DNA from: Amphiscolops sp. MND2022
Lineage: Eukaryota
Length of the DNA: 64,000 nucleotides
Direction: 5' to 3'
Assembly: GCA_964187785.1 (NCBI GenBank)
Contig: OZ076409.1
Coordinates: 27,654,001-27,718,000, forward strand
Below, in pieces: positions 2,211 to 60,643 of the stretch. Within the stretch, counting starts at the first letter, position 1, and each line of letters starts with the position of its first letter. Position numbers and translations under genes: made by a program. The notes below the pieces were generated by a model that searched no databases, had not been told where the DNA came from, and saw nothing but the letters and a program-made list of their open reading frames with translations.

Positions 2211-2307
2211 GGTGTGACCTTGTTCTGTGCCGCAACTTTGTGTGCCCCAAAAATGATGCAATGATGATTGCTAATGATTGCAATGATTAGAGATGGCGAG
2301 ATACTAG

Positions 2308-3141: not shown

Positions 3142-3291
<150 letters not shown>

Positions 3292-3535: not shown

Positions 3536-3650
3536 AATTCCAAACTCTCAATTTGAAAAAAATTAAATTGATGGTTTCTAGTTTGTATTCAACTTGAATA
3601 CAAACTAGAAACCATCAATTTAATTTTTTTCAAAGTGAGAGTTTGGAATT
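3536..3650. repeat. Long palindrome, 57-bp arms, 1-nt spacer
   Basis: Centred on 3593; one mismatch seen. Confidence 0.92.
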
Positions 3651-6609: not shown

Positions 6610-7363
6610 TGTAACGTCCGGCAGTCGGCGTTGCAGAAGTTTTAGAAAATTTCGATCAAAAATTCGAAATGTGCGACATCAAACAAGCACATTCAAGATG
6701 GCCGACCCGGCAGGTATGAAAACCGTAGAGGAAGCAAAAATAAAGGCAAAACACGCCCAAAAAGACCCAACCCACCACCCAGGAATGAGAATGTCCGAGA
6801 TGTCATCACCCAAAAGGCGTGAGAATCAGGAATTCGGCCATCTGACAGCAAAAAGACAGGGTTTTGGCAGAAAAGTGCCAAATGAGACCATTGTGCCCCG
6901 AAGATGAGGAATGATGCCAGAGGCAGGAAGCCGATGATCGCCACCGAACTGTAACTGTATACTTTATTGGGGCCTATCCCCACCTACTTTGACTGTTTAT
7001 AGCGTATTTGGATAATGTTTGACCTACTAGGGCCTCATTTTAGTCCTTATTCACCAATATAATGTATTTCAGCTAGACACCCTTTTGGACCTCGGAAGTA
7101 TGTAGGAAGTCGTAGGAACGTGCTAGAAACCTTAGGATACGTTTTTACAGGCTTGTGGGGCGTGTCCGGACTTTGAGAGTGCCGGCACGTCGCTTCGGAG
7201 CTCTAACTAGAGGAGCCTCCTTAGACGTTAGAAAAGTCCCCCTTGGAGACCATTTTGGGATCAAAAACTAGTGTCTAGGTATGTAGTAAGACAACGGTCT
7301 CCTGTTTAAGCATCCTAGGCATTGTCCCTCTTCCTAGATGTGCGCCGCTAGCCGGACGTTACA
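6610..7363 (+). repeat. 3' LTR of the deleted family A relative (754 bp)
   Basis: TGTAACGTCCGGC...GCCGGACGTTACA, preceded by GGCCCGGGGAGGA. Last ~280 bp closely match 19840-20120. Confidence 0.92.
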
Positions 7364-8825
7364 GATCTGAAAAAAAACATCTCATAAGACCCAAAAAATA
7401 TCAAAGGGATTGATGTCAAAGGAATAACGTCTAATATGTAGCCATCATGGACATAATTTCTCGTGTTTTTCGTCAGACCTTCAATTAATTCCAAATCTGA
7501 CAACATCAATCTCTAGAAACCAAACTTTATTAGTTCGTCCACATTTCTTCGTTTCAAAACTTTTTCGATTTCGGATAACTTTCCATCTTCTCGGATTCCT
7601 CGGATGTTCCAAGTTCCTACACAAAAAGTGCGTTTGAGATCCATAATTATTGCAGTGAAACAATAATCAAGCAGCTGATCACTTCTGCTTCCCTTGCTCT
7701 GAGATAAAGGAAAACCTGCATGAAAATGATGACAACCAAAAATGATAAAATTCAAAATGGCCGCGTCCTTCAATCAATTTCGAATTTTTCAAAGTTAGAA
7801 ATTTTTTTTTCAAATGGAAGTTTTTCTTTGACGCAACTTCAAGTTTCCAAAAAAATGAATTCAAAACTTTTTTTTCGCGATTTGAAGTTTTTCAATTTTC
7901 ACGATTAGTCCCATGCATGGCCATGCATGGTCCATGCATGGCCATGCATGGGATGTGACTTTTTACATGGACCATGCATGGCATCGCATGGGACCTCGGT
8001 ACGGGTAGTGTTTTGCCATTGAAATCTCTTCATGGTCATAAACACGCTAATGAAAACCTTTCACAAGTGGTACCAAGTTTCGAAGAAAGATCGAAAACTT
8101 GAAAAAATAGGCATTTTCAGAGCAATCATGTATCATTTTGCAGGGAAGCTTACTTAGATGAGTCCCATTTTGTACAAAATTTGATCGAATATAACAGTCA
8201 CTAGGTGTTTTCGTCAGATCACAGAATTTATCTGGATGGCCTCTATTCATTTTTTGAAAAGACTTTGTTCACGCAGCGATTGGCTCATTGGTTATGATGC
8301 GCTCTTCTGCGCGCCAAGCAGAAGGTCATGGATTGGAAACCGTCCATGTTTAAATGTTTTTGCTGGGTCAAATGGTCCCCTTAGGGTTTTTCGGCAATAC
8401 TTTTTTCCTGCTACTTTTTTCCTGTGGTAGCAGGATAATTATTCATATTTCAAAAATTCAACATTTTTTCAGTACAATTCTTGTCGTGATACTGAAAAAT
8501 TCAGATACTTTGTTCGGCAGTGAGTATAAGAGTGAGATTCAAATTTCTCAAGCTGCCCACAACAATTCGTTTATTAATTGTGCGCTATATAAATGAACAA
8601 TATATGCTTCTGTTATTGAACACGAAAGCCTAAAAGCAGAAATAATACTGTGCTCCGGAGGGGCCTATTTTTAAAAATCACATTGTACTTCAAAAAATTA
8701 TAAAAATCTAGAACAATTACAGAGAAAACCGATTTCAAATAACTTGCTGAACCAAACTTCTACAGTAATAGATACACCTAACAAAAGCTTTTACCATTTA
8801 TCATTCTGTCCTCTAGTTATTTCAT

Positions 8826-19002: not shown

Positions 19003-19400
19003 TGAACTTTGGAAGCGGATTTCCTCAACAGTGGCGAAACATACGATATAACCTGGCTGTCAAACGTATCACAGCTGCAAAATAGGTGCATTTTAATTTT
19101 TAAAAGCTTCAGCAGTTGCGTTTTGAACAAGTCAATGTTCATTCGAACCATCCAGTGCTGAACGTTTTGCTGTTGATGTTAATCCAAGCAACCAAGTATC
19201 TACTTAAAACCAAGCCCTATTAAATTTTTGCAAAACTTCTGTTGTTTTATAGAGTGTCAATGAGGAGATTCACCAGGGCACGAGAACGCTCAAGACACTC
19301 GATATCGCTGACGGAAAAATTCAAAGCGCGATAAGTTTTTGCATAATCACTTGACACAAAAGCCCTCGGGACAAAATTACAGACAAAATTTGTCTTTTAA

Positions 19401-20120
19401 TGTAACGTCCACCAGTCAACACCAAATTTTCGATGAAAAATTCGATCAAGAACCAGAAAATGTGCGAATCAAAATGGCCGACCTGGCAGGTCGTTGAAAC
19501 CCAAAAATGAAAAAAGTGAACACGCGAACAGGAAGAACAACAGGAGATGATAAAGAAAGGGAGCAAAACGACTATTGACATGAAGATTCACACGGTGCAG
19601 AATACGACGAACGCTACCCGGTGCTATGCCATCCCTCTGGGAGAGAAAGCAGAACTGTTCTAGAATGGCATGACTGGATCCCCGAAAATCTACAAACAGT
19701 AACTGTATTCTCACTTGGGGCTTATCCCCCTTTAATTTGTTAATTTATAATGCACTTTGTTATTTCCCCCATGCCTGACCTTCTAGGTCAGCATTTCATG
19801 TCCATAACTGTCGAAATGACATTTTTCGGATAAACATCTTTTTGGACCTCGGAAGTATGTGGGAGATGGCGGGAACGCGCTAAAAACCTTAGGATTTGTT
19901 TTTACAGGCTTGTGGGGCGTGTCCGGACTTTGAGAGTGCCGGCACGTCGCCTCGGAGCTCTAACTAGAGGAGCCTCCTTAGACGAAAGAAGAGTCTCCCT
20001 TGGAGACCATTTTGGGATCAAAAACTAGTGTTTAGGAGTGTAGTAAGACAACGGTCTCCTGTTTAAGCACCCTAGGCATTGTCCCTCTTCCTAGATGTGC
20101 GCCGCTAGCCGGACGTTACA
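19401..20120 (+). repeat. 5' LTR (720 bp)
   Basis: TGTAACGTCC...GGACGTTACA; only two substitutions seen versus 37989-38708. Confidence 0.97.
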
Positions 20121-20136
20121 TCTGGAATAGTTTTTA

Positions 20137-20153
20137 TGGCGACCACAGAGGGA
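20137..20153 (+). promoter_or_regulatory. Candidate primer-binding site (tRNA-Arg-like)
   Basis: TGGCGACCACAGAGGGA resembles the complement of the 3' end of eukaryotic tRNA-Arg(TCG/CCG), recalled from memory. It lies 16 nt from the LTR. Confidence 0.6.
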
Positions 20154-23100
20154 TATTTTTCAAGGATAATTTTCCTTACCGCGTCCTGCGAGGAGCAACT
20201 CCTGCTTTCCGGCCCTGAAAGGTCCGGATCTAGGAGAAGCTTTTGGGAGAGTCCTAGATTGTTTTTACTGCTTTATTCTAGCCCTTTGGGCCTTGTATTA
20301 GTGTTTTTCCTGCGTTTCCTGCATGTTTCCGAGGTCCCAAGCCTGAAAAAGACAGTTTGAAACGGTGTACCCCCTTGTACCTTATCTGTACTTGTTAAAA
20401 AAGCTATTCCGGCTTATCCGGAACGTGTTTTAACGGGTTTTCCAGCTTCTTTTCAGCTAATTGGCAATGTACAGGGACTGCGAGGACGGTTTGTGAAGAC
20501 CCGAGCTAGCTGAGTGCAGGACTGCAGGTGCTTCACCTCATAGCCTCTTCCTCCCCACCTGGTGCCGATTCACCGAAGACAGCTGGGTTATTTCGTTCCC
20601 TTTACGTTTTCTAGCCCAAAATTAGTATTCCCAGGCCTGTTTTTGCATAAATTAACTGTGAAAAATACCCACAGGGTATTTGCATCAGTTGTTTTAGGGA
20701 CTTGAGCTCGAAAACGCCAAAAATAACACTAATAACAGCTCAAATATCGAATTTTCCCGTTTTGAAAACCAGAATTTTATAGAACTGTGTACGGCCTGTG
20801 GGAATACCTGAAAAACGTTCTGTCGGACCTACCAGGTCGAGAACAAAAATTTTTGTTGGGCTGTTTTTCAAAAAAAACATGAAAATTTCAGCAATTTTTG
20901 TTCAAAAATCGGCAAAATTGGCCATTTTGACCAATTTTGGCAAGGGCGAAGCCTTGGGCGTTTGTTCCCAAGCCTCTTGAAAGGCCCAAAAATTTTGTAG
21001 TTGAGCTTGGTAGTATGCAACACTACTACCAAGACGGTTTTTGACTGCCCCCAATATAAATTGAAGTTTTAACATCACTTTTCTTCCATTAAAATAGACC
21101 TGAGTAAAGGACCCCATAGACCTGAGAGTTATTACATCAAAACCATCAAAACTAATTATTGAAACAACCCCATTCCCCTAAATAAAGTTGTTACACCTTC
21201 TAACACTACTGTTAGAACTATTCGGAACGTCTGAAAACAAAGAAATAAAAATTTCTTGGTGAAAATACGCATTTTCCGTACTGTTCCGAGAGTGTCAAAG
21301 GTGCAACTTAAAGTTTATTTTGAGAGACCTTATTTGGAACCTACCAGGTTTCGCTTGCCTATTTTCCGTTAGTATAGGGTACAACGTTGCAAACGCAGAA
21401 AACCGCAAGTGATTCCAACTAGTAGTTGCCGAGAAATAGCCAAAAACGTGTTATTTTTGTGACATTTTCGGAACACTGGAGTAGTGCTTCCAGTACAGGT
21501 CGAATTCTCTCCTAGTGGAAGCAGTCTCAAACGGATAGCACCATCGTGTAAACCGCAAAAAGTTACGTTAGTGGTGTAATTTTCGTAGCGCTACCACCAC
21601 TAGTGATCGAGAAATCTTAGCCGCAGTTTTGCTCAAAAATGATCCGAAAATGTCGAAAAAATTGAATTTTAGTTGAGCATAGTGCAATACCTCGCAGGTA
21701 CCCCAACACTAAAATTCTTGCATTTTCGTGCACACGGCACTGGATCACGACGATTTGTGCAATTTGAGCAGCCGGCTACTAGCCAAAGCTGAGAAATTGA
21801 CATTTTTGTGATTTTTGACCCGAAAAAGCGGTACCCCTGGTACATCAAGGTTTTGTCACTTCATATCGCCAGATATAGATCAAAGCACCTCGCCGCTAAA
21901 TTTTTCCGTCGTGTAGGCATAAAGTACGCTCGCATGCGAAATTTCAGGTAGCTAGGACGCCTAGAAGGCGAGTTTGACCACTTTTTGTGAATTTCGCGAC
22001 ATAGTCAATTTCTCAGTGAATATTGTTAAGTGGCCGTGACACCCACCGGATCAATTTTAGCGCAATCGGAGGCTTGTTCCCCACGATTCAGCCAGTGTAT
22101 TAGACGGTGTGAAATTTTCAGGTCGCTAGTACCACAAGAAGTGATTTTCACCTTCCCCGGAGGTGCTACTTGATGAGAAAAACAATATTTTGAGTGAATT
22201 TCAACTGAAAACCCATGCATTTCTAGTCCTGATGCACCTCATTCAGGGCTGAAACGACCTGTTTAGCGCATCGAGCAAATCCCACACGTCTTACTGAACT
22301 TATAAAATCCGTGTAGGGTTAGCCCCAAGATCAACGACCTTCCACTAAACACTCTACGAGACCAAGAGACGGTAACTCCAAAAACCGAAATTCGTTTCTT
22401 GCCCGCCACCAAAGTCGCCTAGGTGCAATTTGCTCGCCATAACCACCCATACTCTGCGCCTCGTATACCCTGAGGGTGCGAGAGTGTGCCCGGGAGCACC
22501 AAAACAGTCACAGACCAGGTTTGCGGAACGCGTAGAGAAACTAGAACAAGGACAGAGGAGATCATCCATATCGTTGTAACCTTTTTACCCACGAGCCATG
22601 AAGCCATAGACCAGGTCACCACTTGATACTCAACCCACGCGTTCCCAATCAAACCCCATATCATTCCCAATCCATTGCCCACCCATTGTTCCCGAACCAA
22701 CCTCCTCGCACAAGCAAAAAAAAACTTAAAGTGACCCCCACTGCGCTCCGCGCAAGGGATACAGCAGATACCCAGATACCCTCGCTGACGAGTTTGAAGC
22801 TAACCCAACAACTTTCAGTTCACGGCAGCAGCAAGGCCTGCGGTCACCTAAAAGTAGAAGCCAATCTAGCGTATAGTAATCCGTAGTAGTGATCAAAAAA
22901 AAAACTAAAAAATTTTTGTTAAGAAAGTCAAACCTTCTAAGTGAGGAAAAAGCAGACGAAATTTTAGTTAACCAAACCAGCGATAGTGTGCCTAGTGCAC
23001 TCCAAAAGTGTAGGAAGCAATTCAAGCCCATTTAGCAAGTCTCTACCCCAATACACAAAAGACCGGTAACGCCGAGTGGCAAAGCGCGCCAAATAGCTTA

Positions 23101-23317
23101 GTTAGTTAGTTAGTCAGTGCAGTTTAGATAGTAGCTTTTTGAGTTATTTAGCCAAAGCAAACCCTCCCCATTCCATCATTTACCACTTGTTTTGTGGGGG
23201 GAAGTGAGTAGAGAAAAGCCAAAAATCAAAAAAAAAATTATTTTTTTTGTTGTTGTTGTCGGCCACATCGTGGAAGCTTCGCACGCAGTGGAAGCTAAAA
23301 TATTACATTCCGTAGCC

Positions 23318-26011
23318 ATGGAACGACGTGAGACTAACGCCACCATAAGCGACTTCCATGCCACCAACCCTTTCAGAAGAAGAACGGAAGCCACAGCCGA
23401 ACAAAACGAATGTAGATTAGATTCCGCCATAGCAGCCGTGTTTTCAGAAGTTATGTCTGACTTCGTACCGAGCCAGGAGCAAAACGCGGAGATAGCCGTT
23501 GCCACCAGCCAGCCTAACTCCTCGCGAGCCTCCCCCGACAGCACCAATCCACCGGATGATGCTGAAACCACCACGCAAAGAAAAACATGGCCTCCGCTGG
23601 AAGTCACCGACTACAGTTTGGAAAATTGGCCAAACTCCAACCAAGGGCCCACAGGTGAGCCCAGCATTGCTGATACCCCCAACGAACAAAATGACACTCC
23701 AGTGACTCCACGGGCGGACCCACGGACGGCGGTTGTCGAAAGGAACCCCCGGGTTCCCAGGAGATGACCAATAGCATAGGCGGGAATCCCTTTCGAAGCG
23801 GATATGCGCTACCGGAAGCACCGGCGAAGATGTCGAACAGGCCAGCGGAGAACTCGAAGACAAACATAACAGAGAATCCGTTAAGATACGTTTTTCGAAC
23901 GCCACCCTCGGTGAGACCAAAGATTAATTATGCGAATGCGAGCCGAACATCCCACACGCCAGACTCTCAAGCTAGCGCCGACACCAATCTTGACTCAACA
24001 ATAACCAAAGCAAGAAAGGAAACGCAAACGGTTCGAGAAGACTTTCAAAGTAGCCTAGCTCAGCTAGCTCAAGTCCAGACAAGGCTAGCGCGGGAAAACA
24101 ACGAACATGAGATGCGCGCCGACATGATAATGAGAGACATGGACGAGCTGTGAAAAGGTCTTCTGGAAATGCAAGCGGAAGGGCGACAGAATCAGGGCCG
24201 ACTGGAGGCGTCCATGGCATCTCTCAATGATCTGATTAAACAGAGAGAAACTACAGCGGACGCCCGCATGGCCGAGATGTCCGCAATAATGAGAGAAAGA
24301 GACCGCCAGGCCGACGAACGCATGAAAGCAATGACAAACACAATGCAGCGCCGCGACATGGACTCCAATGTCCGCATGGCGGACTTGATGATGGCAATGC
24401 AAGATTTAACACTGGGCGTGAAAGCAATTGTGTCGCAGACCCCCGCACAGCAAACACAAACGGCGTCACGGGTGCCCCAAAAATACCAGCAGGCCGAGAT
24501 GCCATCTACAAGTGAAGCTCCCCAACCTCACTATAGGACGGTGGCACAGCACACAGTGGAGCCTCCTAGGCCCCCAAAACTAGTGCCACCCGCGACGTAC
24601 AGGCGTGACCTGTCGAAAGCTAGTAAGATGGCTAAGGTAACCCACACGGAGTCACGAGACGCCGGCACAGACCCCATGACTGACCCGCCGTCGTTTGACC
24701 AGTACACTCGCGGGGCATCGACCTCGGGCGACTTTCATTCCGCTGCCGACGAAACGAACACCCGCAGGACCAGCTACTATACGGCCGATTCCAGCGCGGC
24801 ATTCCGCCCACCTGCGCGAACGCAGACGTTCAGAGACTTCGTTCCGCGGCCAGTGGCCACCAGTACGCAGCGCAAGGTGACGACCAAGCGGAACCTAGAA
24901 CAAGGCAAAGGCGAACATAGTGACATTGAAGAGATGCCCTCGGTGGCAGAAGAGGCCCCGGACACACCGAGAACTACCCAACGACAAGCACTAGCAGAAG
25001 CAATATCCACAGCCTTGTCTAAAGGCTTGGAGCCGTTGCTCGCCGTCAAGGAGTCTAAAAACAAGCCCACGAAATACAGAGGAACCCGAGACGGAAATGC
25101 AGATGGGTGGATGATGTTGATGAAACGCCACTTGGAAAAAGCACACCCGAAGGCGACCCCCCTCGATAAAGCATGGACGATAATTGAGTATCTAGAGCAT
25201 GAAGCCAGAGACTACATCACGAATAAGTCCGAAGCCGAGAGGGACACGGATGAGAAAGTATTCGCATTGCTGGCGCGTCGCTTTGGGACAGGCTCCAGCA
25301 AAATCCACATCCAGCAGCAATTTAGAACCCGCAACCAGAATAGCGAAGAGGACTACATGCAATACCTTGATGCCCTCGAGGGCTTGCGTAGTCAGGGTTA
25401 CCCCAATGAAGAGGTAACAGTTCGTCGATACGAAATTATGCAAAGATTCATTGAGGGAGTACGCAACTTTGAACTAAAAAGAAACCTCGCGCTAATGTAT
25501 GCACCGGAACAATACGTGGAGACCCCGCCAACAGTGGAAGCCCTCCGCTTCACGGTACAACAATACTTACGCACGCATGCGTGGCTCCACTCGCTCGGAC
25601 AACTACCCGATGATACCCCCTCCACAACAACAAGCCAACATCCCACAACCTAATCAGTCTCCGGTAGCACCCACGCCTGCCCAAAAAATGCAACAACAAC
25701 AGCCTCCCCAACCAGCAGCATACCAACAACAACCCATGCCACCGGCAGCCTATCGACAACAACCCCAAAGGGCGTGCTTCAACTGCGGAGACCCATCGCA
25801 CTTCGTGGTGGACTGGCCCCTGAAGGACCGTGCACGGAAGCCGGTGCAACAGCAAGTAAACTCCTGTCACACGAACCCGACCGGCAGTTGGGTGTGCCCC
25901 TCTCAGCCACATGGCTTGAACTATGATGTTTTCCCAGCATCTCTGCCAACCCAAGGCACAGTTGCATTCTGCATTAATTGCGGCCGTACTGAGCACTCGG
26001 CGTCGGAATGC
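23318..26011 (+). pseudogene. gag: Gag region (disordered N-terminus, coiled coil, capsid-like domain, two CCHC knuckles), disrupted
   Basis: ATG in GCCATGG at 23318. Frame change near 23760, in-frame TGA at 24151, ACGC duplication at ~25570. Knuckles CFNCGDPSHFVVD(W) and CINCGRTEHSASEC. Confidence 0.8.
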
Positions 26012-29000
26012 ATGGCCTCGGAACAAATGAGTCACGAAGAACAAATCCGTGCAGCGTGGTATGCTCCTTCACCAAGTCAATTCGACGGCCTGAGCCAAGA
26101 CGACCAGGTCCGGGTAATATCGATAGCAGAAGATGGAGGCCCCTCCCGACCTGTAGTAGTCACCTGTGGCGAGAAGCAAGTACTCACCACGCTGGAGGCA
26201 CCCGCCCCAGATTGCACAGAAACACTTATCTCGATACACTTACTTCTCTCGGCCGAGCAAAAATCGCGACCCACGCTGACGCTATCGCAACTAAAGGAGG
26301 AGTTATGCAGAAACGTGAAATATACAATCGCAGCGCGACCGCTCCCGCATTTCGCAAGAGAAGACGAAACGAAACTGGCCCCAATACAGAAAGTCAAAAC
26401 CGTTTCTCCGGTGCCGGTAGCCATCAACGTAGACGGTGTAGACATGAAGTTTGACGCTATCGTAGTCTTAGAAGGTCACTTCCCTCAGGGATTGTACTTG
26501 GGCCGCCAGGAGTTGCGATGTTATAACATCGGAGTGCAAGATGCCCATGGGGAGGCTCGCATTGATGAACGGGCATCCCTGGTAGTTGCCTTTGGCAACA
26601 CAATCCAGGAACCAATACCCTTGTACGGGATGATTGACACCGGCTCGGGTGTCTCCATTCTCTCCCTAAAGGCCTATCAAAAGATTGCATCAGCCCACGC
26701 CTTGAGCCTCCTGCCTTATGACATCCAACTGTATGCCGCCAATGGCAAAACCATCAACACCATCGGCATTGCCGAAAATGTTAGCTTCCAGTTGGGCGGA
26801 CATACCCTTCGAACCAATTTTATAGTCATCGCCGATCACCTAGGTGCGGAGGACTTTTTGCTTGGCAGAAACTTCTTGCGCACTTACAACGTTCTCGTGG
26901 ACCTGACGGCCATGAGGGTCACCATACGAGACCCCAAAGCGCCACGCTACTTCAAACCCGTCCATGAGGTAAGTGACCACGAGCCATCCTTAGTGATATC
27001 CACCGAAAAAGTAGTCCTAGGCCCTTATGAGCGTAAACTGGTGCGAGCCCAAGTTTTTTCTCAAAAGCACAATGAGTACCTTTTCCGAAACGTAATGATT
27101 CGCCCCCTGGGGGTACATAAACGATGCCCCTTTGTTTCAGAAGATACATTGACGTCTGTTGGAGACGAGGGCATTGTTTTCATAGCCGTACGAAACACTG
27201 CCACCTTTGAAAACGTAACCATTCCAACCAAAACTGTCCTCGGTAAGGCAGAACCTACAAACTTTGTGTTGCAACCTGTGGCTGCCGACACGGCAACCGA
27301 AATTGATAAACCTTTGTTTGAACAAGTTAATAGAGTTTATACCGATGAGTGGTTGAACGAAACGAGTTCGGAATATAGTTCTTTTGCTCAAAACTTTTTG
27401 TCCTCTACTGAGATGTCTGAAGAAGGGTTGTCGGAAAGTGAGAAGCGTGCTCGGACTGACCCACAGTTACTAAGACCTATACCAGGTCCAGACCTCTCTT
27501 CTGTCCTTTCTTCATGGGGGGAGGGAGCGAGAGATCAACTAGCAAGCGTCCTGAGCGAGTACGATGATCTTTTTATGAAGCATAAAGCTGACATAGGGAG
27601 GTGCAAAATAGCGAAACATCGTATAGAACTAGAGCCGGAAGCTATCCCGCATAGAGAAGGCGCTCGGCGCATGTCCCCGGATAAGGCGGCGAAGGCTAAT
27701 CAAGAGGTGCGGAATGTGTTGGCCCTTGGCCTAATTCAACCCTCCTATTCACCGTGGGCAAGCGGAATAGTCATGGTCAAAAAGAAAACAGGCGAACTTC
27801 GCTTCTGCTGCGACTTCCGACCGCTCAACGACGTAACGGTCAAGGACGCGTTCCCATTGCCCAGGATTGATGAAAGTCTATCCCGGATAGGCAATGCGAA
27901 AATTTTCACAAGTATTGACCTAGCGTGGGCCTTCTGGCAGATACCGCTAAAGAAGCGCGATAGGAGGAAAACGGCGTTTGCCTGCGAACTGGGCTTGTTC
28001 GAATGGCGACGCATGCCCTTTGGGCTGTGCAATGCCTCAGCCACATTTCAGCGTTCCATTACACGAGCCCTGCAACGGATCCAACAGCGACACGGGAGTG
28101 TCGTCATGGCTTACATTGACGACATCGTTATCGCCACGGAAACCATAGAAGACCACATCGCACGAATCAAGGAAGTATTCGAGTGTCTCCGAGAGGCTGG
28201 ATTCAAGATGCGTGCCGAGAAATGTGACTTCATGCGCACGGAGACAAAGTACCTGGGGCGAGTGGTGTCCTCAGAAGGCATCGAGCCAGACCCCGAAGCA
28301 GTAATCAAAATCCAAGAATGGATGCCCCCAAGAAGCAAAGAGGAGCTTCAGAGCTTCCTAGGGTTCGCGAACTATTACCGAGACTTTGTGCCGTTTCATG
28401 CAGCCAAGGTGCAACCCCTGCAGGAGTTGCTCAAGAAGAGTCAGCATTTCCACTGGGAAGTGAAACACCAAGAGGCCTTCGATGCCGTAAAAGAGGCACT
28501 AGCAAATGCGACCGCCTTGGCAGCCCCAAATGAAGACGGACGGTTCGTGCTCGATACCGATGCTAGTGCGGTAGCAATAGCTGGAATCCTGCACCAGGAA
28601 CAAGAACACAACGGGAAAACTATCTTACGGCCAATAGTCTTCGGGAGCAAGTCCCTAACGAAGACGCAACTGAACTATGGAGCACCCAAGTTGGAAATGT
28701 ACGCAGTATTTAACTTCATAGAGAAATTCCACTCGTATCTCGCAGGCCGAGAGTTCACGCCCCGCGTGGACAACCAGGCCCTATCGTGGCTTAAAACGTA
28801 CTCCATGGACCAAGCCATGATAGGTCGCTGGATAGCCCGTCTGGATCAATATAACTTCAAGACGATCCACCGACCTCGCACACAGCATCGAAACGTGGAC
28901 GGCCTCAGCAAACGGACTAACGACTATGTGCACCGAGAGAAAATCCTTGAGAAGTTACCGGAAGTGAGTGAAGGATTCAACTTCATGACCCAGGAAGACT

Positions 29001-31243
29001 ATGAAGCACTCCCCACCGTGCCATACTTTGATAAACACGGACGCCTAATACCAAACCATCCAGAGCTTCCACCGGAAGCTCGAGCCCAACTCCCACTGCT
29101 GTATATCTTGGGAAAAAGGCCCAAAATGAGCTTGCAAGAACCCCCGGTGAGTGATGCCCCGTGGTACCCCCAAATACAGTGGGAAGCGACACCCACCATC
29201 GATGAGGATCACCGACCGAGTCACATCCTCAGCATCACAACCGGAAGGCCACCGGCACGCCTAGACACTGGAGATCCTGATCCTGTGCTTGAAGGGATGC
29301 CACCCGAATGCCAAAGACAAGCCCACGCCCTCAGAACAGTCGGGACAGAGCTGCACGAACACTTTCTAACTAGACGTGGTCTCAAAGACCTGCACCTAGC
29401 GCAAAATAGGGACGTGCACCTCCTGGCGCTGAGGAAACTCATGAAAGGCGAACCACTGGAAGACACAATATTCCCCGAAGACGTGCAGGACTTCGCGCGA
29501 CGCTACTTCCATCAAAAGAAAGACCTGCTCTTCCTGAACCCAGACGACATCCTCTGCGTCAACTACGTTCCGCAACAACGTGCGCTGCACGTGCGACCGT
29601 GCATGATAGTCATGCCCCAACTATACCAACACGAGATTTTGTATAGGGCGCACGACGAATCGGGACATCAGGGCGTAGGGAAGGTGCTAGCAAGAGTACA
29701 AGAGCGGCACACCTGGCCGGGCATCAAGCGTGACATAGTCAATCATATTAAGCACTGCTTAACCTGCCAGCAAACAAAACACCCTGCCGGGAACCCCTGC
29801 TACCCCTTGCAGAACATTAACAGCAGCAATTTCAACGACTTGGTGCAATTCGACCACCTCAAACTATGCAAAACTGAGTCGGGGAACACCGGTCTCTTGG
29901 TCATGATAGACCACTTCACGAAATTCGCCGAGGCTATCCCGTGTGCCCACGACGAATATGATGCCCAAACCACAGCTAAGATCATCCTTAATAAATGGTT
30001 TGCCAGGCACGGCACTCCAGCACGCATGCAGTCGGACAATGCCACGAATTTCACAGCTGAAATCGCGCAGGAGTTAATGAAGGCATCGCAGGTAACAAAG
30101 GTGACATCCACAGCAGCGCATCCCCGAGGAAATGGACTCGTGGAGAGACAGAACCGAACGTTACTCACACTGCTCAGAGTCTACACATCGCGGCGAATGC
30201 AGGATTGGGATGAGCACATCGATGGAATCCTCGGTGCTTACAATTCAACTAGACACGCAACCACGGGATTCTCTCCCTACATGCTCCAACATGGAGCCGA
30301 AAAATCCATTCCCTTGTCGTTCATCTACCCAGAGTTTGCTGCGCGAGGATTCGATTCCAAAGAAGAATTCGTAGAACACCTTCTAGCCAGGCAACAAGAA
30401 ATCCATGAACTCGTCAGAAGAAATACGCACCAAGCACAGCTAAGGCAAAAGCTAAAGTTTGAACGCCACCGGAAGGCCAAAGCGCACGCCGTAGGCGATG
30501 CGGTGTGGGTATTCTGCCATATCATACCCAAGGGTGGCACCCGCAAGCTGATTCGCGCATGGCGTGGACCGCACAAGGTGACTGACGTGTTGCAGGACGG
30601 ACGATTATATGTGCTAGACACTGGTCAAAAGGTCCATTACGAAAGATTAAAAAAACACGTGCCCGCCCCTTGGGACTGGGCTGCACACCAGCCCTTTGGG
30701 CCGGATCAAAACGTAGCCATCATTGCTGATCCGTATGTAGAAGAAAGCAATGAAGAGATAGCGTCCGACATCTCTCGAGAATCTTTTCTACCAGAACAAC
30801 TTCCGGAAGCGTCGTTCGAAATGGAGCCAACAGGATCGGTTCCACCTCGTACCATTCAGACTCGTACCCAAACGGCCCTCGAGCAAGGAATACCCCGAAG
30901 AAGATTCAGCCACTTCGGATACCCCTCTGACTCAGACTCCGAAAGAGAAGAAAATGAACCGCCGATCCAGAGCCCAGCACCGCCAGTAGTGTTCCCCGAC
31001 TTGGACGACCTAGAACCACTGTACTCCGACCAGGAGGAAATTCAGCCAGCCGCACCTACAAATCTGATACCATCACCCTCAGGGACCTCGGCCCCACTAC
31101 TATCCAATCCGTCCCTGACGGATACCCTGAGTAACTTTCCCTTGTTTGGCCCCCTATTGGAGGACCCAATCGGTCCGATGGAAATTAAACCAAAGTCAGG
31201 AACTGAAGACGAAGAAGAGATAGTCCATCGCAGTCCAAACTAA
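25499..31243 (+). CDS. pol: Pol polyprotein: aspartic protease, RT, RNase H, integrase
   Basis: DTGSG (~26636), MPFGL/YIDD (~28112), DTDAS...E...D RNase H, HDESGH...CLTC zinc domain, FDH/SDN/VER DDE core, WRGPHKV GPY/F motif. Confidence 0.97.
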   Translation: MHRNNTWRPRQQWKPSASRYNNTYARMRGSTRSDNYPMIPPPQQQANIPQPNQSPVAPTPAQKMQQQQPPQPAAYQQQPMPPAAYRQQPQRACFNCGDPSHFVVDWPLKDRARKPVQQQVNSCHTNPTGSWVCPSQPHGLNYDVFPASLPTQGTVAFCINCGRTEHSASECMASEQMSHEEQIRAAWYAPSPSQFDGLSQDDQVRVISIAEDGGPSRPVVVTCGEKQVLTTLEAPAPDCTETLISIHLLLSAEQKSRPTLTLSQLKEELCRNVKYTIAARPLPHFAREDETKLAPIQKVKTVSPVPVAINVDGVDMKFDAIVVLEGHFPQGLYLGRQELRCYNIGVQDAHGEARIDERASLVVAFGNTIQEPIPLYGMIDTGSGVSILSLKAYQKIASAHALSLLPYDIQLYAANGKTINTIGIAENVSFQLGGHTLRTNFIVIADHLGAEDFLLGRNFLRTYNVLVDLTAMRVTIRDPKAPRYFKPVHEVSDHEPSLVISTEKVVLGPYERKLVRAQVFSQKHNEYLFRNVMIRPLGVHKRCPFVSEDTLTSVGDEGIVFIAVRNTATFENVTIPTKTVLGKAEPTNFVLQPVAADTATEIDKPLFEQVNRVYTDEWLNETSSEYSSFAQNFLSSTEMSEEGLSESEKRARTDPQLLRPIPGPDLSSVLSSWGEGARDQLASVLSEYDDLFMKHKADIGRCKIAKHRIELEPEAIPHREGARRMSPDKAAKANQEVRNVLALGLIQPSYSPWASGIVMVKKKTGELRFCCDFRPLNDVTVKDAFPLPRIDESLSRIGNAKIFTSIDLAWAFWQIPLKKRDRRKTAFACELGLFEWRRMPFGLCNASATFQRSITRALQRIQQRHGSVVMAYIDDIVIATETIEDHIARIKEVFECLREAGFKMRAEKCDFMRTETKYLGRVVSSEGIEPDPEAVIKIQEWMPPRSKEELQSFLGFANYYRDFVPFHAAKVQPLQELLKKSQHFHWEVKHQEAFDAVKEALANATALAAPNEDGRFVLDTDASAVAIAGILHQEQEHNGKTILRPIVFGSKSLTKTQLNYGAPKLEMYAVFNFIEKFHSYLAGREFTPRVDNQALSWLKTYSMDQAMIGRWIARLDQYNFKTIHRPRTQHRNVDGLSKRTNDYVHREKILEKLPEVSEGFNFMTQEDYEALPTVPYFDKHGRLIPNHPELPPEARAQLPLLYILGKRPKMSLQEPPVSDAPWYPQIQWEATPTIDEDHRPSHILSITTGRPPARLDTGDPDPVLEGMPPECQRQAHALRTVGTELHEHFLTRRGLKDLHLAQNRDVHLLALRKLMKGEPLEDTIFPEDVQDFARRYFHQKKDLLFLNPDDILCVNYVPQQRALHVRPCMIVMPQLYQHEILYRAHDESGHQGVGKVLARVQERHTWPGIKRDIVNHIKHCLTCQQTKHPAGNPCYPLQNINSSNFNDLVQFDHLKLCKTESGNTGLLVMIDHFTKFAEAIPCAHDEYDAQTTAKIILNKWFARHGTPARMQSDNATNFTAEIAQELMKASQVTKVTSTAAHPRGNGLVERQNRTLLTLLRVYTSRRMQDWDEHIDGILGAYNSTRHATTGFSPYMLQHGAEKSIPLSFIYPEFAARGFDSKEEFVEHLLARQQEIHELVRRNTHQAQLRQKLKFERHRKAKAHAVGDAVWVFCHIIPKGGTRKLIRAWRGPHKVTDVLQDGRLYVLDTGQKVHYERLKKHVPAPWDWAAHQPFGPDQNVAIIADPYVEESNEEIASDISRESFLPEQLPEASFEMEPTGSVPPRTIQTRTQTALEQGIPRRRFSHFGYPSDSDSEREENEPPIQSPAPPVVFPDLDDLEPLYSDQEEIQPAAPTNLIPSPSGTSAPLLSNPSLTDTLSNFPLFGPLLEDPIGPMEIKPKSGTEDEEEIVHRSPN

Positions 31244-32989
31244 TGCTCAACACAACCCGATACCACGAACCGCAGAGGACGGCCTCGAGGCCGACCACCA
31301 GGTCGAGGACGACCCCGCGCCATACCATCCAGTAGAACCACGACATCGTCGCGAACCCAAACCACACGATCCAGAAGAGGCCCTAGGACAAGAGTGAGCA
31401 CTCGTGCACCCCCTCGAAAGCTAGACCGAGCAATGACTCTACCAGAGATACCCGAAAGCCAACAACCACCGGAGAACCAGAATTCTGAACCGAGACCGTC
31501 ATCGCAAACATCACGATATCAACTGCGAGCTAATAGAGCACCACGATACAAGTGTGGAACCTGTGGTTCCCGCAACTGTAGTTGCGTCAAGCAACTGACT
31601 CGCGATTCACCGGACAACCGATTGGCCCGGGGAGCGGTAGTCCCTGCCAGGGACCTCCTAATGGCCAGGGCACATTATCATCCACAACATGAGATCCTGA
31701 CTGTACAAGCCCAGCGAGAAAAAGTTGAGGCCCCTCCGCTAGTACACCATCTAATCATCACGGTAGAGAAAACATTCACTAGTGTGGAGCGAGAAGTGAT
31801 ACCACCGCTGGAAGAAACACTCAGAGCAATGCACGCGACATCTCCCTCCGACTGCCCCACTTACCGATTCAAGGAATGGACACCACCTCACCGAGGCGGT
31901 TTAGAGTTCACCCTACATGCCATCATACCGCCCTTGCCACCCTCAATGACGTTCGGCGAGCTAGCGGAAGAGGATAGCAGCCCGGAGATGGTTCGCTGTA
32001 CCACTGCACACCAACTGTGGGAGAAATATCGCATTGCCTCCCCGCCGGGAGACATATACCAGCCCACCAATGGATGGTGGCTACTCGTCACTTCTCTCGA
32101 CGCAACGACATTGGTGTCTCCCACAACTCTATTAATGTGCTTAGAGAGCTTGCGCACTGTAACAGAACCTGAGAATACGCTCTGTTTCCACATGGCCGAC
32201 ATTCATCGCGGCAAGTTCCTAAGCCAACATTGGCTACAATTAATAGCGGTCATCTTCTGCCGACAGGCGAAGATACACTTCTTGGATCGGCAATCTTATA
32301 CGCCGGAAAAACCCGTCACGGTCAACGAAGCACTCTCGATAGCACACGATTGGTCATCTACCAACATGGGAGATAGACCGCTACGCCGCACCGTCTGGGA
32401 GGACCGCAAAGCGATCTTACGGCATTTAGCACCCCAACCTAATGATGACCAGAGCAATACCACCGGCAAATGGCTCATAACCCAGCCCAAGACCAGACCG
32501 AACAACCTGCCTTGGATAACTTATGCCAATACAGATATCCTGCAGGCCCCTGGCACTGTGATACTGTGCTGCCCTGCAGATTTGCTCTCTTACTCTTCCA
32601 CCACCCGTTATGTTATTCGCGAGTACGGTCAGGAAAACATATTTCGCCTAAGGCCGGCAGTTGGCACCGCAATTCGCTTAGTCCGCTCGCCAACTGCACC
32701 CTGGAATAACGAAATTTTCCTTCTATGTACAAGAGCATCGAATAAATACCCACTCTTACATGAAGTACTCCATGCGTGTTTGACAAATTTGATAACCCAG
32801 CTCCATCGAAACCACATTACCAGAATCCACTTGCCCATATATGATCCCGAGCGATCAATGAACCTCCTACCAGCCTGGTACGCCACGCTACGCGACCACT
32901 TTGCAGACCATAGTATTGCAATAATCTTGCACGATCGCGTCTATGTCTCGATAGCATCGGTGACCTCAGTCGATTTTGGCGGTAGTTAA
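31244..32989 (+). CDS. In-frame extension after integrase: AT-hook cluster, CxxC-CxC motif, two degenerate macrodomain-like repeats
   Basis: Same frame as pol, separated only by TAA at 31241-31243. RRGRPRGRPPGRGRPR at ~31271-31318. WITYANTDILQAP...IFLLCTR...ITRIHLP resembles TARG1/OARD1. Confidence 0.72.
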   Translation, partial: CSTQPDTTNRRGRPRGRPPGRGRPRAIPSSRTTTSSRTQTTRSRRGPRTRVSTRAPPRKLDRAMTLPEIPESQQPPENQNSEPRPSSQTSRYQLRANRAPRYKCGTCGSRNCSCVKQLTRDSPDNRLARGAVVPARDLLMARAHYHPQHEILTVQAQREKVEAPPLVHHLIITVEKTFTSVEREVIPPLEETLRAMHATSPSDCPTYRFKEWTPPHRGGLEFTLHAIIPPLPPSMTFGELAEEDSSPEMVRCTTAHQLWEKYRIASPPGDIYQPTNGWWLLVTSLDATTLVSPTTLLMCLESLRTVTEPENTLCFHMADIHRGKFLSQHWLQLIAVIFCRQAKIHFLDRQSYTPEKPVTVNEALSIAHDWSSTNMGDRPLRRTVWEDRKAILRHLAPQPNDDQSNTTGKWLITQPKTRPNNLPWITYANTDILQAPGTVILCCPADLLSYSSTTRYVIREYGQENIFRLRPAVGTAIRLVRSPTAPWNNEIFLLCTRASNKYPLLHEVLHACLTNLITQLHRNHITRIHLPIYDPERSMNLLPAWYATLRDHFADHSIAIILHDRVYVSIASVTSVDFGGS

Positions 32990-33320
32990 GAACACGTCTC
33001 GCTCTCTCCTTGGCAAATCAGGCCACTGGCCTTTTGCATTGCCTTTCGTAATTTCGAAGCACCTTAAATTTTAACAACGATGCACCGATAAGCGCAAGTT
33101 TTAGTAGCAACCACATAAAATTTTTTTAACCTTGTGTTTGTGTGTTCGTCCTAAAAAGTTTGACTGACCACCCATTTATGTAACGTTTTATCCCCAACTG
33201 TGACCTGTTTTTCAGTTTTGTCTTGTTGCCTCGCCTCTGCGCGGCTCCCCCACTTATCACGCCAAATCAGTCTTGCCATCACAATCTTCGGTGCTAAACA
33301 TTCCTTTATCATTGTTTCCA

Positions 33321-36300
33321 ATGGACCCATCTGCGCGACACCGCCTGCCTGCACCCCAGAACGCTGCGCGTGCCCAACCATCCACAAGGAGCGATCCACC
33401 TCCAATGATGAGTGAAATAGATGGTCGAGTCGACCAACTAGCTCTTGTCCAAGACACTCTACTAAACGGAGCGACACCCACAATGATCGCTGGCTTTGCC
33501 ATGATCATCGCCCAAATCCAAGCTCAGGCAGAGTACCCTGATGTTAGCCTCACCATCACCAGCCGGGTCGGCCCGATAGAACGCTCTGCCACCTTTCGCG
33601 ACGGTACCTGGCAAGGGTATGACTTGACCCACAGCCTCATAGATCCTCGCTCCCACTTAGTCTATGGAGAGCCTACTAGGCCTCCCATGGACCAAGAGCG
33701 ATCACTGCGCATTTCGCAATCGGCATTGCAGACACAAACTACGACCCCGTTGCCCTCACCACACCCTGTGCAATTCAGCTGCACACTGCCAATCATGCCA
33801 CCCCCAGTGCTAACACCGCCCATGCCTCTGGCATCGGAAGGCATCCGACTACTCACAACCCCATCTTCTAACTTCATGCTTCCATCTACCTTTCAGGGGG
33901 GAGGGGTGCAAGTAGACAATACAACAAGCGCTACCCTGAGCGAAGAACAGCCCAGGAGAACGGTGACGTTCAAGGACTCATATGAAGAATTGACTCAAAC
34001 GTCCTCCAGAACCGAATCACAAGTCTCGGAACCTCCACAAGTCTCAGAACCAGCCAGCCTAGTAGGCTTCCAGATGGACCCACAATTCCGAGAACGTCAG
34101 CGAGAACAACAGAAAGCTGAAAGTAAGGCGGCCAACACCGTGGTAGACCTCCGGGAGGAGATTAAAGCTGGAAAGCGAGCTAGAGAGGCGGCCGGGCAAG
34201 GTAGGCAATCGAGCTCGACCAGTATCCCGCAACCCCCGTCTACCTCGCCCACACAACCAGAAATCAGGAGACCTAGAATAACGCACGAATTCCTCACAAA
34301 TGCAGAAAAACGACAGCTAGACATCACTGCACGCGACGCACTGCGTCTCAAGCGGGAAATACCAACCACGACGTCACCAGAAGACCCATTACAACAGAAG
34401 TTCGAGGTCGCTACAGGAACAGGGGACCTTGCCAGTAGACAGAAAATAGAAAAAGCCACGGTAGGGGTACTCTACAATCGCCCCGTCAAGAAACCCGTGT
34501 TCACTCGGGATGGATGCCCCCCCTGGTTCAACCGCATGCGGGCAGAACTGGAGAGAGTGGATTCAACATACATGCGTGTTCCCGACGGCTTCCTCCGACA
34601 GCGCCCAGGCCGCTTTGACGAAGACCGCTTGCGAACCAAGAACTATGCGAGGGACCCCATTACAATCCTGCCCATGGGAAAGGACCTCCTACAGAAAACC
34701 AGAATAGCCTTCTTCGTCGACTCGACGATAAAGTCTTCTTTCAATTCCCACAATACCCTCATGGACGTCAGAATACTGAACATGCCCTGTACTACACTGA
34801 ATGAAATGGCAGAGGTGACTGATAAAATGTTCACCCAAGCGGGAACAGAGACTATCCCACTACCTCCGTTGTTGGTATATTCGAATGTGATAGACCACCT
34901 CGCTCTGCGAGGGACCCTGGAATTCTTCCGGCCAGACCATGAAAGGTTTACCGAGGGGTTCGTCACTGACGAGGTAACTAACTACGTGGAGACGATGGCC
35001 AATATTGCCCAAGCTATGCGCAGAAAGAAAGCCACCACTGGGACGGTGTTTATGTCACCTCCAGGCTACGTGTACCTTCCTCGGACCCTTCAGCAATTCT
35101 TGTACCTAATAATGGAGGCCGCGTACGCGAGAGATCTGGCTTTCTACATTGTGGCCCCTAATTTACGCATCAGTAACAATAGCTGGCGCCCCTGTGAAGC
35201 CTCATACCCAGCCTTCATTGCCGAAGTCTCCAAGGCCCTCCAATCATACGTCGGTTACCGCGGCAATTCCCAAATGATAGTAGATGAAGCAACAGCGTTC
35301 GATTATGGGATGGAAATGGCTCGTCGATCAATGAACGAGCGTGGAGACCGAATAGTGAATAATCCAAATGAAAATGAGCGCAATAACCTGGTGGATAACC
35401 TCTGGTTTGAACGCCGGGACGAATCGACCATAGACGAGAAAACGCATGAGCCCAAGTTCCACAAAGAACTCACGAGTCTGATGAAGGAAACCGAAACGAT
35501 TCAAAGTGATAGGAAGAATTCCTCTATCTTCCCTATAACACAAATATCGTTGGACGCTGAACCTGGGCAAAGATCACCCACATTAGCCATGCTGTTGATA
35601 CAGGCTCAAGATATTGTACGAAGGAATGCTCAAGAGCCAACACACACATACCAAACATGGCACGACCAACTGCGAGAACCTCTGGGCCAAGTCGCGGACC
35701 AGCTAGGCATATCATTTCCCGTATTCCTCCATAACATCTCTCCCTTCTGGCTTCCTTCCCTAGTACAGGCCGAGTACGGCCTGGATGAGCAGCGAATGCG
35801 ACTATACATGGAGTCCATGGAAAGAGCCACCATTAGTGAAATACTAGCGTATTTGATGGCCGTGGGGTTGACCATGATGTACCGAGGACCGTCAGCCCTC
35901 ATACAAAAGTTCGTGCTCAACAAGGGAGGCTCAGCCCTGTTCAGCTTCCTGGTCTTTTCGCAGAATCAAAGGAGTTGGATATCTGCGCTCATTAAAACTC
36001 TGGACCCAGCGGGTTCCTTGAAGTTAAAAGCGCAACTAGATTTGAACATTCAAGCACTTCTAGTGTGGATTTATTCCACTTGGGTCAATGTTTCTGGCGT
36101 TATGCATCCTCTGGATGAGTGCCCAGCTATTAACCGAGATCCCAGTCAGCTTCCAGGGTTCCTGTTCCCTACACAAATAGCAACGTTGATGCTCGTGGAA
36201 ACAGAGGACCTGATCCCACTCATTGCTCCTGTAATCTGGCCTATCTTCGGCGCAGTTATGGCCTTGCGCTATCCAACGCAGGCCTTGCGAGTGGCAGCAG

Positions 36301-37405
36301 TAGCCCCATCCCTCTCGATTCTACACTTCGTGACCTCTAATGGGCCCCTTCAGGGTCCCACCTATCAATCAGTGATACACAGCTTTGCCAACTTTCGACC
36401 TCCCATGGCATACACCATAATCAAAGACCGCCAACAAGTGGAGCACAACTATCTTACGTTGATCAAAGCGCGAGCACGCAGCTCGCTCCCATTGCCAATG
36501 GAAATCCACCCGGTCGTTTGGCTACATACCCCCTCAATCCAAACAATGGAGCAGTGGCAACGTTTGATGGGTGGGACGTGCCAGTTGTCCTGCGTATCTT
36601 GAGAGCGATTATCCAAAGATTGGGTGGTCGCCGAAAAGGAGAAGAACCTACTAGGTTATTATATCCCTATGCGTGTGACACTTCCAGAGCATACTGTGCA
36701 AGAGCGGATCCCCGTGAGCATACCGCCAGAATTTTAAATACCATTACGTGTTGGGCCCAGCCGGAACTCGTAGACCTCGCTATCCACCAGACCTTTCAAC
36801 AGCTGCCAACGACTATTCCAACAGTAGCAAGAGAACCAAGCAGGAAAGATCTGCCCGTGAGCACTGACGTTCCCAGCAACCCGCGCATTGCGCTAGAGAT
36901 ATTCGTGCGCCTGCATGGTCTCCAGCGAGAACATACTCGAGCTGTAGGCGAAGAATACGTTAGGGGAATACAAACATTCAAGCAGCTATTCACCCAGCAT
37001 GGTCATCAAGAATTGGCGGACGGACTGCCGAACTTAGAGCCAACCGAAGCTATCCCAGGGATCAGCGACTTGAGCGAAGCTGCCTCTGGCAGCTCTCGCA
37101 CCGTCCTTCCCACACCCCACCTCACTCAAGACACCGATGAATTATTGGTATAAGGGGTACAAGACGATGTCCCAAACGTCATGCCACCATCAGAGGAGCC
37201 TATGACCGACAACAACTTCACGCTCTCTGATGCCACTACTCCTGTAAGAGACGAAGCGGAGACTAAGATCTCAAACATGGAGGCAACGGACATAGAGTCA
37301 GAGCTTAACAACTTACTGACCATAGATGAAGAATACCAAAATACAGTGGACACCATGGGCAGCACTTCCATGCAAGAAGCCCCACAGAACCAGCTGTTGG
37401 AGTAA
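33321..37405 (+). CDS. Large extra ORF3 (~1350 codons if one frameshift near 36520-36600 and TAA 37151 are repaired), with an SGNH-like domain
   Basis: 1109-aa ORF, an overlapping 211-aa ORF and an in-frame 74-aa tail. Motifs IAFFVDS, ILNMPCTTL, LLVYSNVIDHL, VFMSPPG. Confidence 0.75.
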
Positions 37406-37951
37406 AGGAGTCCTCTGGACCCTCCAAGACCGTTGGAATACAATTAAGCACAAAAGACCTTATCATCAAAGCATTGATGCCAACTCTTGATTTTAGTTGT
37501 GCTACACCATCTTACTGGTGCTGAAAACATTCGGTGCAATAAAGCTTGATTTCAAAATTTTGTTTGATATATATTTTACTATGCTACCAATGCAACAATG
37601 CAATATAGCTACATCCTCTGGGCGGGTCCCGGTTCGGTGCCCTCCCCTTTTGATTTGAATTTAAAACTTCTACTAAGCCCAAAAGTTGTTGTTACTCACT
37701 TGGCCGCGCAGGGGTCCAATTTTAGAAAAAGAAATTTTACCTTGAACTGAGTGATTAGTGAAAAAACTTTTTTTAAAAGATCCGACTGTAGAGTTTTTAA
37801 CCTAGAAACCCGTGCTTTTTGAATTTGATGGCTTTAGAGTGCTAAACATGCAGTAACGAAACGAAAAGAATAGTAATGTGAAATCAACATAGTCTTGATG
37901 TAAGACCTTTTCTGTAAATCTCAGAGTACCCTTTGGGTGCGAGCATCCTCT

Positions 37952-37988
37952 CGTTTGCCGAGGACGACAAACTACGGCCCGGGGAGGA
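37952..37988 (+). promoter_or_regulatory. Pre-LTR hairpin and polypurine tract
   Basis: GTTTGCCG-AGGA-CGACAAAC stem (perfect in the 6575-6593 copy), then GGCCCGGGGAGGA abutting the LTR. Confidence 0.85.
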
Positions 37989-38708
37989 TGTAACGTCCAC
38001 CAGTCAACACCAAATTTTCGATGAAAAATTCGATCAAGAACCAGAAAATGTGCGAATCAAAATGGCCGACCTGGCAGGTCGTTGAAACCCAGAAATGAAA
38101 AAAGAGAACACGCGAACAGGAAGAACAACAGGAGATGATAAAGAAAGGGAGCAAAACGACTATTGACATGAAGATTCACACGGTGCAGAATACGACGAAC
38201 GCTACCCGGTGCTATGCCATCCCTCTGGGAGAGAAAGCAGAACTGTTCTAGAATGGCATGACTGGATCCCCGAAAATCTACAAACAGTAACTGTATTCTC
38301 ACTTGGGGCTTATCCCCCTTTAATTTGTTAATTTATAATGCACTTTGTTATTTCCCCCATGCCTGACCTTCTAGGTCAGCATTTCATGTCCATAACTGTC
38401 GAAATGACATTTTTCGGATAAACATCTTTTTGGACCTCGGAAGTATGTGGGAGATGGCGGGAACGCGCTAAAAACCTTAGGATTTGTTTTTACAGGCTTG
38501 TGGGGCGTGTCCGGACTTTGAGAGTGCCGGCACGTCGCCTCGGAGCTCTAACTAGAGGAGCCTCCTTAGACGAAAGAAGAGTCTCCCTTGGAGACCATTT
38601 TGGGATCAAAAACTAGTGTTTAGGAGTGTAGTAAGACAACGGTCTCCTGTTTAAGCACCCTAGGCATTGTCCCTCTTCCTAGATGTGCGCCGCTAGCCGG
38701 ACGTTACA
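37989..38708 (+). repeat. 3' LTR (720 bp)
   Basis: Direct repeat of 19401-20120. Confidence 0.97.
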
Positions 38709-39223
38709 TAAAGTCAAACAAAAAATACGAAAGTTGCCATACTTTTGGCAATTTTAGAAATCTATCATGCAATATCTTGAAAATCGCTGGTCGCAGCGAA
38801 AACTGTCTCATACAGAAATTAAACCTTTGACTCAGATCTCTAGCTTTTAGGTTTAACATTTTTTTGAAACGTTCATCTTTAGAATTTATACCTTGAAACG
38901 ATCGGAAAATACGAATTCTTCAATTTTTCCTGCAAAAAAGCTGCAAAATTGATTGTAGATTGAATAAGATTTAACTACCGGCTAAGAGTTTTGGGTTCCC
39001 TGGTTGGAACTGGTTTAACTTTTTACATGTTTTTGTAGGTTACCACGATGTTATTAAAATCTCAAATGAGAGTCCATACATCAAAACTTCACTGATTTGA
39101 TTTAATTTTATCAAGCTGCCTGTAAGATGCATCCTAAATTTAACGGCAATTCTGCGCCGCAAGGTATTGCAGGTTTCAATAAGATGCCGTTCTAATTTTG
39201 AAAGCAGCTGAGACCTTCATAAA

Positions 39224-60633: not shown

Positions 60634-60643
60634 TTAATTGTTG

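Follow-up and report, generated by a model that had tools for sequence, protein, structure and literature searches.

A giant Ty3/Gypsy-type LTR retrotransposon of Amphiscolops with an apparent 3-bp target-site duplication

The 3-bp footprint

Can the integrase of a retrotransposon with ordinary TG..CA long terminal repeats (LTRs) join its DNA to target strands only 3 bp apart? The question is raised by a 64,000-nucleotide stretch of the genome of Amphiscolops sp. MND2022 (GenBank assembly GCA_964187785.1, contig OZ076409.1, positions 27,654,001 to 27,718,000 of the forward strand), referred to below as the window. The window contains a full LTR element of 19,308 bp (19401-38708; plus strand, as for all features below unless stated otherwise), with TG at its start and CA at its end. 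The 5' LTR (19401..20120; 720 bp, TG..CA, with a perfect 10-bp terminal inverted repeat) and the 3' LTR (37989..38708; 720 bp) enclose an interior of 17,868 bp and differ by 2 mismatches over 720 bp (~0.3% divergence). By this measure the copy is very young.

A preliminary description of the window, made from its letters alone, had given the flanks of this element as TAA/TG...CA/TAA, without a match at 4-5 bp. Our comparison of flanks of 2-8 bp agrees: the target-site duplication (TSD) reads TAA on the left (19398..19400) and TAA on the right (38709..38711), and the 2-, 4-, 5-, 6-, 7- and 8-bp comparisons all fail, the 4-bp flanks being TTAA and TAAA. A solo LTR of a related subfamily on the minus strand (59938-60633, 696 bp; 59935..60636 including its 3-bp flanks) had been described in the same terms, again correctly. 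In element orientation its flanks are TAA and TAA, with no match at 2 or 4-8 bp; the 4-bp flanks are TTAA and TAAT. The solo LTR, aligned in minus orientation, is identical to the LTR of the full element in 503 of 647 aligned columns. Because the two copies are only 78% alike, they evidently represent separate insertions by different subfamilies. An exact 3-bp repeat is thus present at both (2/2) of the family insertions that have both flanks inside the window.

A third family member, a non-coding deletion derivative (1..7366), has its 5' end outside the window. Its 3' LTR (6610-7363, 754 bp) is followed by GAT, as the preliminary description had noted. We judge it to be a 3' LTR by the polypurine tract alongside (6602-6609), which is identical to the tract abutting the 3' LTR of the full element (37981..37988); the 5' partner would lie ~1.2 kb before the window start. 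The derivative has leader homology at 201-902 and 4342-5041, and tblastn found no pol homology in 1-7363. Between the two leader segments, at 903-4335, lies a ~3.4-kb insertion with 14-bp terminal inverted repeats and a possible 2-bp AT duplication. A further motif match, at 16038, was considered as an LTR of the family and rejected: it has no LTR homology and is due to chance. A TpA step is present in both TSDs. Since the third junction reads GAT, there is no support for TAA as a strict target; a preference for bendable, A/T-rich sites with a TpA step seems probable.

The ends of the element are set by the divergence of its 5' and 3' LTRs, save for one base per side that is common to both LTRs, an A before TG and a T after CA. 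If the element retained an extra base at each end (ATG..CAT, its A coming from the side of the polypurine tract, its T from that of the primer), the real duplication would be a single A. Such an arrangement would fit the A found before 4/4 LTR starts and the T found after 3/4 LTR ends, but the upstream 3' LTR ends CA-G, and it is well established that retroviral-type integrases join at the CA-3' end. To our knowledge, a 1-bp stagger is without precedent. We regard this explanation as very improbable.

We estimated the role of chance from 400,000 random junction pairs taken from the non-element DNA of the window. Such pairs match at 3 bp in 2.1% of cases, which gives 4.5e-4 for two of two. A genuine 3-bp TSD would be without any 4-6-bp match 98% of the time. 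An intact true 4-, 5- or 6-bp TSD never yields the observed pattern; with one or two substitutions, 1.6-2.6% of cases do. A 4-bp TSD blurred by substitutions or imprecise repair is conceivable for the full copy, which is one base off, at the edge of a T-run where errors are likelier. Moreover, 4-bp TSDs are common in LTR elements: a plant survey of 13,566 elements, which used TSDs as a prediction criterion, gives 5 bp for 93.4%, 4 bp for 6.2% and 6 bp for 0.4% (PMC6317226). One substitution would be needed at the full copy (pattern then obtained in 2.6%) and two at the solo LTR (1.9%); a perfect 3-bp match after random changes is expected in just 2-3% of cases each. Decay of a longer TSD is also improbable at the full copy because that copy is so young; it has had almost no time to mutate. 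We therefore consider a blurred 4-bp duplication quite unlikely.

More serious is the possibility that the TSDs were of ordinary length (4-6 bp) and that both copies now have mismatched flanks, the 3-bp matches being chance events helped by an A/T-rich target preference. The 19-kb copy could have acquired such flanks by chimeric assembly or inter-locus recombination, and the solo LTR by inter-element recombination. The family is of very high copy number (the closest protein cluster has 633 members) and the element is 19.3 kb long, which makes it hard to assemble. Rearrangement has also occurred close by: the LTR-like direct-repeat pair 9933-10421/13539-14019 reflects a local rearrangement inside the element that contains it. 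This explanation, however, calls for flanks to have been exchanged twice, independently, and for a 2.1% coincidence to have occurred both times, and other families in the window have retained their TSDs. [quoted passage not shown] In addition, an 8-of-9 hairpin can be formed across the junction by the full element's left and right flanks; of 1,154 random right flanks that begin with TAA, 12 equalled it. The hairpin weakly favours a single original locus for the two flanks. Overall, exchanged flanks at both copies appear unlikely.

Several observations count against a 3-bp stagger. The sample is n = 2, both TSDs are one and the same A/T triplet, and the A+T content of the flanks is 64-71%. The GAT junction has no TpA step and cannot be paired, its partner flank lying beyond the window. 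The flanks of the solo LTR have no hairpin continuity (6/9, which is ordinary). We considered, and rejected, a single MITE interrupted by the full element: the inverted repeats to its left and right are two separate elements (17044-19002 and 38998-40643) and therefore give no proof of flank continuity. We have not seen the empty site, and flanks derived from different loci through mis-assembly or recombination are the main loophole. Given that very many windows have been scanned, a coincidence of 4.5e-4 cannot be neglected should chimeric flanks occur often. The suggestion of a 3-bp TSD nevertheless stands as the most economical account and passes the chance and substitution tests, with two insertions as its basis. 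To the following reading we give a probability of roughly 0.75: the element represents a subclade of Gypsy with an integrase that cuts at a 3-bp stagger, and this stagger arose separately from that of Troyka (see below).

Ty3/Gypsy affinity and comparison with Troyka

The gag-pol region (23318..32989) encodes zinc knuckles, protease, reverse transcriptase (RT), RNase H, integrase and a C-terminal macrodomain, with a capsid recognised in relatives by PNMA-like matches. The pol order is protease-RT-RNase H-integrase, and the Pfam families found are RT, RNase H and retroviral integrase only. The Gag-Pol frame of the window copy is damaged: it changes frame twice, around 23.75-23.8 kb and around 25.57 kb, and is interrupted by two stops, one ending at 24153 and the other at 31243; intact relatives have a single Gag-Pol open reading frame (ORF) of about 3,000-3,240 residues. 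The RT motif is YIDD, and YIDD or YVDD is present in 16/16 relatives examined. The element has two knuckles of the CX2CX4HX4C type, which is found in 10/16 relatives. The integrase (29576..30775) has the HHCC motif, the DDE core and a GPY/F motif; its closest homologue of known structure is Ty3 integrase (PDB 7Q5B, E 2e-31), with WRGPH of the element aligned to YVGPF of Ty3. The GPY/F motif is present in 14/16 relatives, and the other two end or diverge before it.

Searches with the LTR-end patterns gave 0 matches in viral, metagenome and genome collections, and protein-alignment scans confirmed 0/380, 0/40 and 0/47 stretches. A metagenome protein scan confirmed 93/160 stretches, from which 80 loci were kept; they are short, distant relatives (24-53% identity), and both LTRs with flanks were found in none of the 80 (ends of 10 viewed). 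On long ENA contigs the family is abundant, with 626 of 5,772 candidate proteins passing. The nearest named homologues and the repeat content point to a host that is probably an animal, and ORFs near the element may resemble repeats of acoels. A quick tree of RT and RNase H sequences was computed from 59 rows (28/29 chosen proteins, 30/80 loci and the window element). In this tree, which includes neither labelled clade references nor an outgroup, 21 ENA-family rows fall on one branch among Gypsy-type homologues (SH-aLRT 99), with the window element in an 8-row subclade (SH-aLRT 99). By its sequence features, we assign the element to a lineage of Ty3/Gypsy (Metaviridae-type) LTR retrotransposons that are abundant and very large.

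In common with the Ty3/Gypsy group it has the TG..CA LTRs, the polypurine tract, the domain order, YIDD, an HHCC/DDE integrase with GPY/F, CX2CX4HX4C knuckles and, in relatives, a PNMA-like capsid. It differs in its apparent TSD of 3 bp rather than 4-6 bp (a typical trait of the group, not a taxonomic criterion), in its length of 19.3 kb, in a Gag-Pol that ends in a macrodomain, in an extra ORF of ~1,360 residues and in a candidate tRNA primer site 16 nt off the LTR.

The preliminary description had taken it as known that LTR integrases normally make 4-6-bp TSDs. As a general statement this holds, with one exception: Kojima 2025 gives 4-6 bp for LTR retrotransposons except Troyka, which has 3 bp (PMC12440569). 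The same group was named Kuafuorterviruses by Gong and Han 2024 (PMC11673190). The Troyka/Kuafuorterviruses are also the only LTR group with 3-bp TSDs that we found in the literature; judged by title or abstract, the other matches looked like DNA-transposon contexts, CACTA elements among them. A TG..CA LTR family with a 3-bp TSD was not found in that literature, which did not include Repbase and most subscription journals.

Might the element simply be a divergent Troyka, its 3-bp TSD thus being already known? The TSD length (2/2 copies with both flanks) agrees, as does the Gag-protease-RT-RNase H-integrase order, encoded by a single ORF in intact relatives of the element and described likewise for Troyka (PMC12440569); an envelope gene was not detected. 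In all other features tested the two are distinct. The LTR termini of the element are TG..CA in 4/4 LTRs, compared to CG..CG (CGCCA..TGGCG) in Troyka (PMC12440569). Its RT has YIDD, compared to IADD, VADD or LADD (PMC11673190). Its integrase carries GPY/F, while that of Troyka is described as having no GPF/Y motif, and the knuckle given for Troyka, CX2CX8-10HX4C (PMC12440569), is present in 0/16 relatives of the element. Finally, the family LTRs of 696-754 bp (720 bp in the full copy) and the interior of 17,868 bp are outside the Troyka ranges of 100-400 bp and 1,553-7,691 bp, respectively (PMC12440569). The element integrates like Troyka, yet it is no Troyka, because it fails all five other tested features and shares only the TSD length. 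Misplacement of a Troyka relative can be virtually dismissed, and the origin of the 3-bp stagger would be a separate one.

Outside the retroelements, 3-bp duplications are familiar. PIF/Harbinger transposons make them at TAA/TTA targets, using a DDE transposase and a DNA-binding ORF and having no RT, and IS3-family insertion sequences combine them with TG..CA ends and a related DDE enzyme. Unlike either of these, the element is a retroelement that possesses LTRs, RT and a polypurine tract, and a Pfam search of the window found no match to a Harbinger transposase.

As a lead towards the cause of the apparent 3-bp stagger, we compared integrase cores in an alignment of 53 rows (the window element, 20/22 chosen proteins and 32/80 loci). 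Two changes are confined to the same 6 rows, those of the window element's subclade: two inserted residues in the loop that precedes the first core helix, and an Ala replacing Gly two residues after the second catalytic Asp. In the alignment the altered Gly adjoins the position of Ala188 of prototype foamy virus (PFV) integrase, a residue that contacts target DNA (PMC9410886, PMC4176367). Among the 155 of 230 proteins that fit the search pattern, which are related copies and not independent events, a 29-residue loop occurs in 102 (with Ala in 101 and Val in 1) and a 27-residue loop with Gly in 52; the remaining 1 is a pattern artefact. Ty3 itself argues in the opposite direction: its integrase loop is one residue longer too, with a non-Gly residue at the same site, and Ty3 makes 5-bp TSDs. 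Therefore, the loop and Gly residues alone do not fix the stagger, and we treat the two changes as a lead only.

If the integrase indeed cuts with a 3-bp stagger, insertion would proceed as follows. The element is copied by reverse transcription, and the integrase would join both CA-3' ends to opposite target strands 3 bp apart, with gap repair then copying the three bases into a 3-bp duplication. More speculatively, the two subclade-specific changes in the integrase core might reshape the target-DNA cradle so as to give a tighter stagger. Shorter staggers are reported to go with sharper bending and to favour flexible YR steps (PMC4422553), and the Troyka example indicates that the chemistry of an LTR integrase permits a stagger of 3 bp (PMC12440569). 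A 3-bp stagger is probably the rule for the family. The fuller version, in which giant TG..CA Gypsy elements of a large subclade with recent activity independently acquired a 3-bp stagger that maps to two integrase-core changes absent in sister subclades, is tentative, and we give it somewhat less than an even chance. On that version, nature would supply two integrases that are closely related but differ in the spacing of their targets.

Accessory features and neighbouring repeats

The last ~150 residues of Gag-Pol form a predicted macrodomain (32516..32938) resembling TARG1/OARD1. A profile of 47 sequences (the window element and 46 of 134 matches) matches human TARG1 with E 1.5e-9; the structural model has a mean pLDDT of 84, and its Foldseek match is again TARG1 (E 5.6e-9, r.m.s. 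deviation 2.3). The TARG1-like macrodomain is conserved throughout the lineage, even in relatives that are about 28% identical. Such a domain could conceivably counter host defence based on ADP-ribosylation.

Downstream lies the extra, family-specific ORF (33321..37402), about 1,360 residues long in relatives and with a frame change near 36.55 kb in the window copy; 22 homologues were found among 7,996 candidates. Its likeness to SGNH hydrolases (score 0.75) is a weak lead that could not be confirmed: the predicted fold has a pLDDT of 34, no PDB profile matches and BLAST gives no match to the SGNH-bearing relative. A Pol protein of a sister subclade (P0101) has a match to Lipase_GDSL_2 (SGNH) after the integrase (E 9e-7); the lineage therefore appears to swap accessory domains at the end of pol. 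Comparable captures behind pol are described in rotifer Vesta LTR elements, with a GDSL/SGNH ORF3 (PMC5408684), and in fish endogenous retroviruses with macrodomain ORFs (PMC4977317). The element resembles these in its macrodomain and possibly in an SGNH-like ORF, and differs in that its macrodomain is fused to Gag-Pol and TARG1-like and that the SGNH assignment is not confirmed.

Two candidate priming sites follow the 5' LTR. The first, 14 nt immediately after the LTR (20121..20134), can pair with LTR nucleotides about 251-264 (19651-19664) over 14 bp at -16.7 kcal/mol, a value as low as which was reached by 1 of 300 block shuffles; its role in self-priming is a candidate one, and the two other LTR subfamilies do not conserve the pairing site. 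The second is a candidate tRNA primer-binding site (20137..20153), beginning with TGG 16 nt downstream of the LTR, with a presumed likeness to the 3' end of a tRNA-Arg.

The repeats around the element are varied. Two of the TGTCG..CGACA insertions contain an ORF of 200-220 residues running to the element end (127 homologues), and the insertion at 8846-14019 encloses two more ORFs as well as a direct repeat of 481 bp. The MITE-like CCC..GGG copies are at 17044-19002, 38998-40643, 47906-48442 and 60644-61194, with one end imperfect; their 2-bp TSDs vary in sequence (TG, TT, AA and TG), which resembles the pattern of CMC/EnSpm-type elements. A broad scan for TG..CA segments returned 1,918 candidates, chance for the most part. 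Among other segments, a 1,060-bp TG..CA segment with a 5-bp flank repeat (41962-43021) is a candidate solo LTR within a degraded transposase-like region, and a 177-bp near-perfect hairpin element (54212-54388), with TG..CA ends, is flanked by a 4-bp repeat, AATT. Other long palindromes, at 3532-3654 and 43497-43675, have spacers of 1 nt. At 50257-52699 the ORFs are broken; they encode C2H2-like zinc fingers and a helical stretch which, by eye, may be a tyrosine-recombinase (Crypton-like) remnant; no Pfam match was found there. Finally, 361-bp direct repeats (96%) that start with TG, at 61963-62323 and 63641-64000, could be the LTR pair of a small element truncated where the window ends.

Implications

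How long a TSD is depends on the distance between the intasome's two active sites. On our best reading, what is new here is a Gypsy lineage with a Troyka-like footprint, as seen in two insertions. If this is true, the stagger of an LTR integrase has fallen to 3 bp a second time, within canonical Gypsy and without CG ends, and 3 bp, by which Troyka has been recognised (PMC12440569), would be weakened as a classifier. Such families would escape LTR finders that insist on 4-6-bp TSDs, or be trimmed wrongly by them, and surveys with a 4-6-bp prediction step, as described in PMC6317226, would be blind to them. Which residues set the stagger is presented as an open structural question (PMC4422553, PMC9410886). 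The close relatives of the element, with pol about 45-60% identical, would be suited to asking it.

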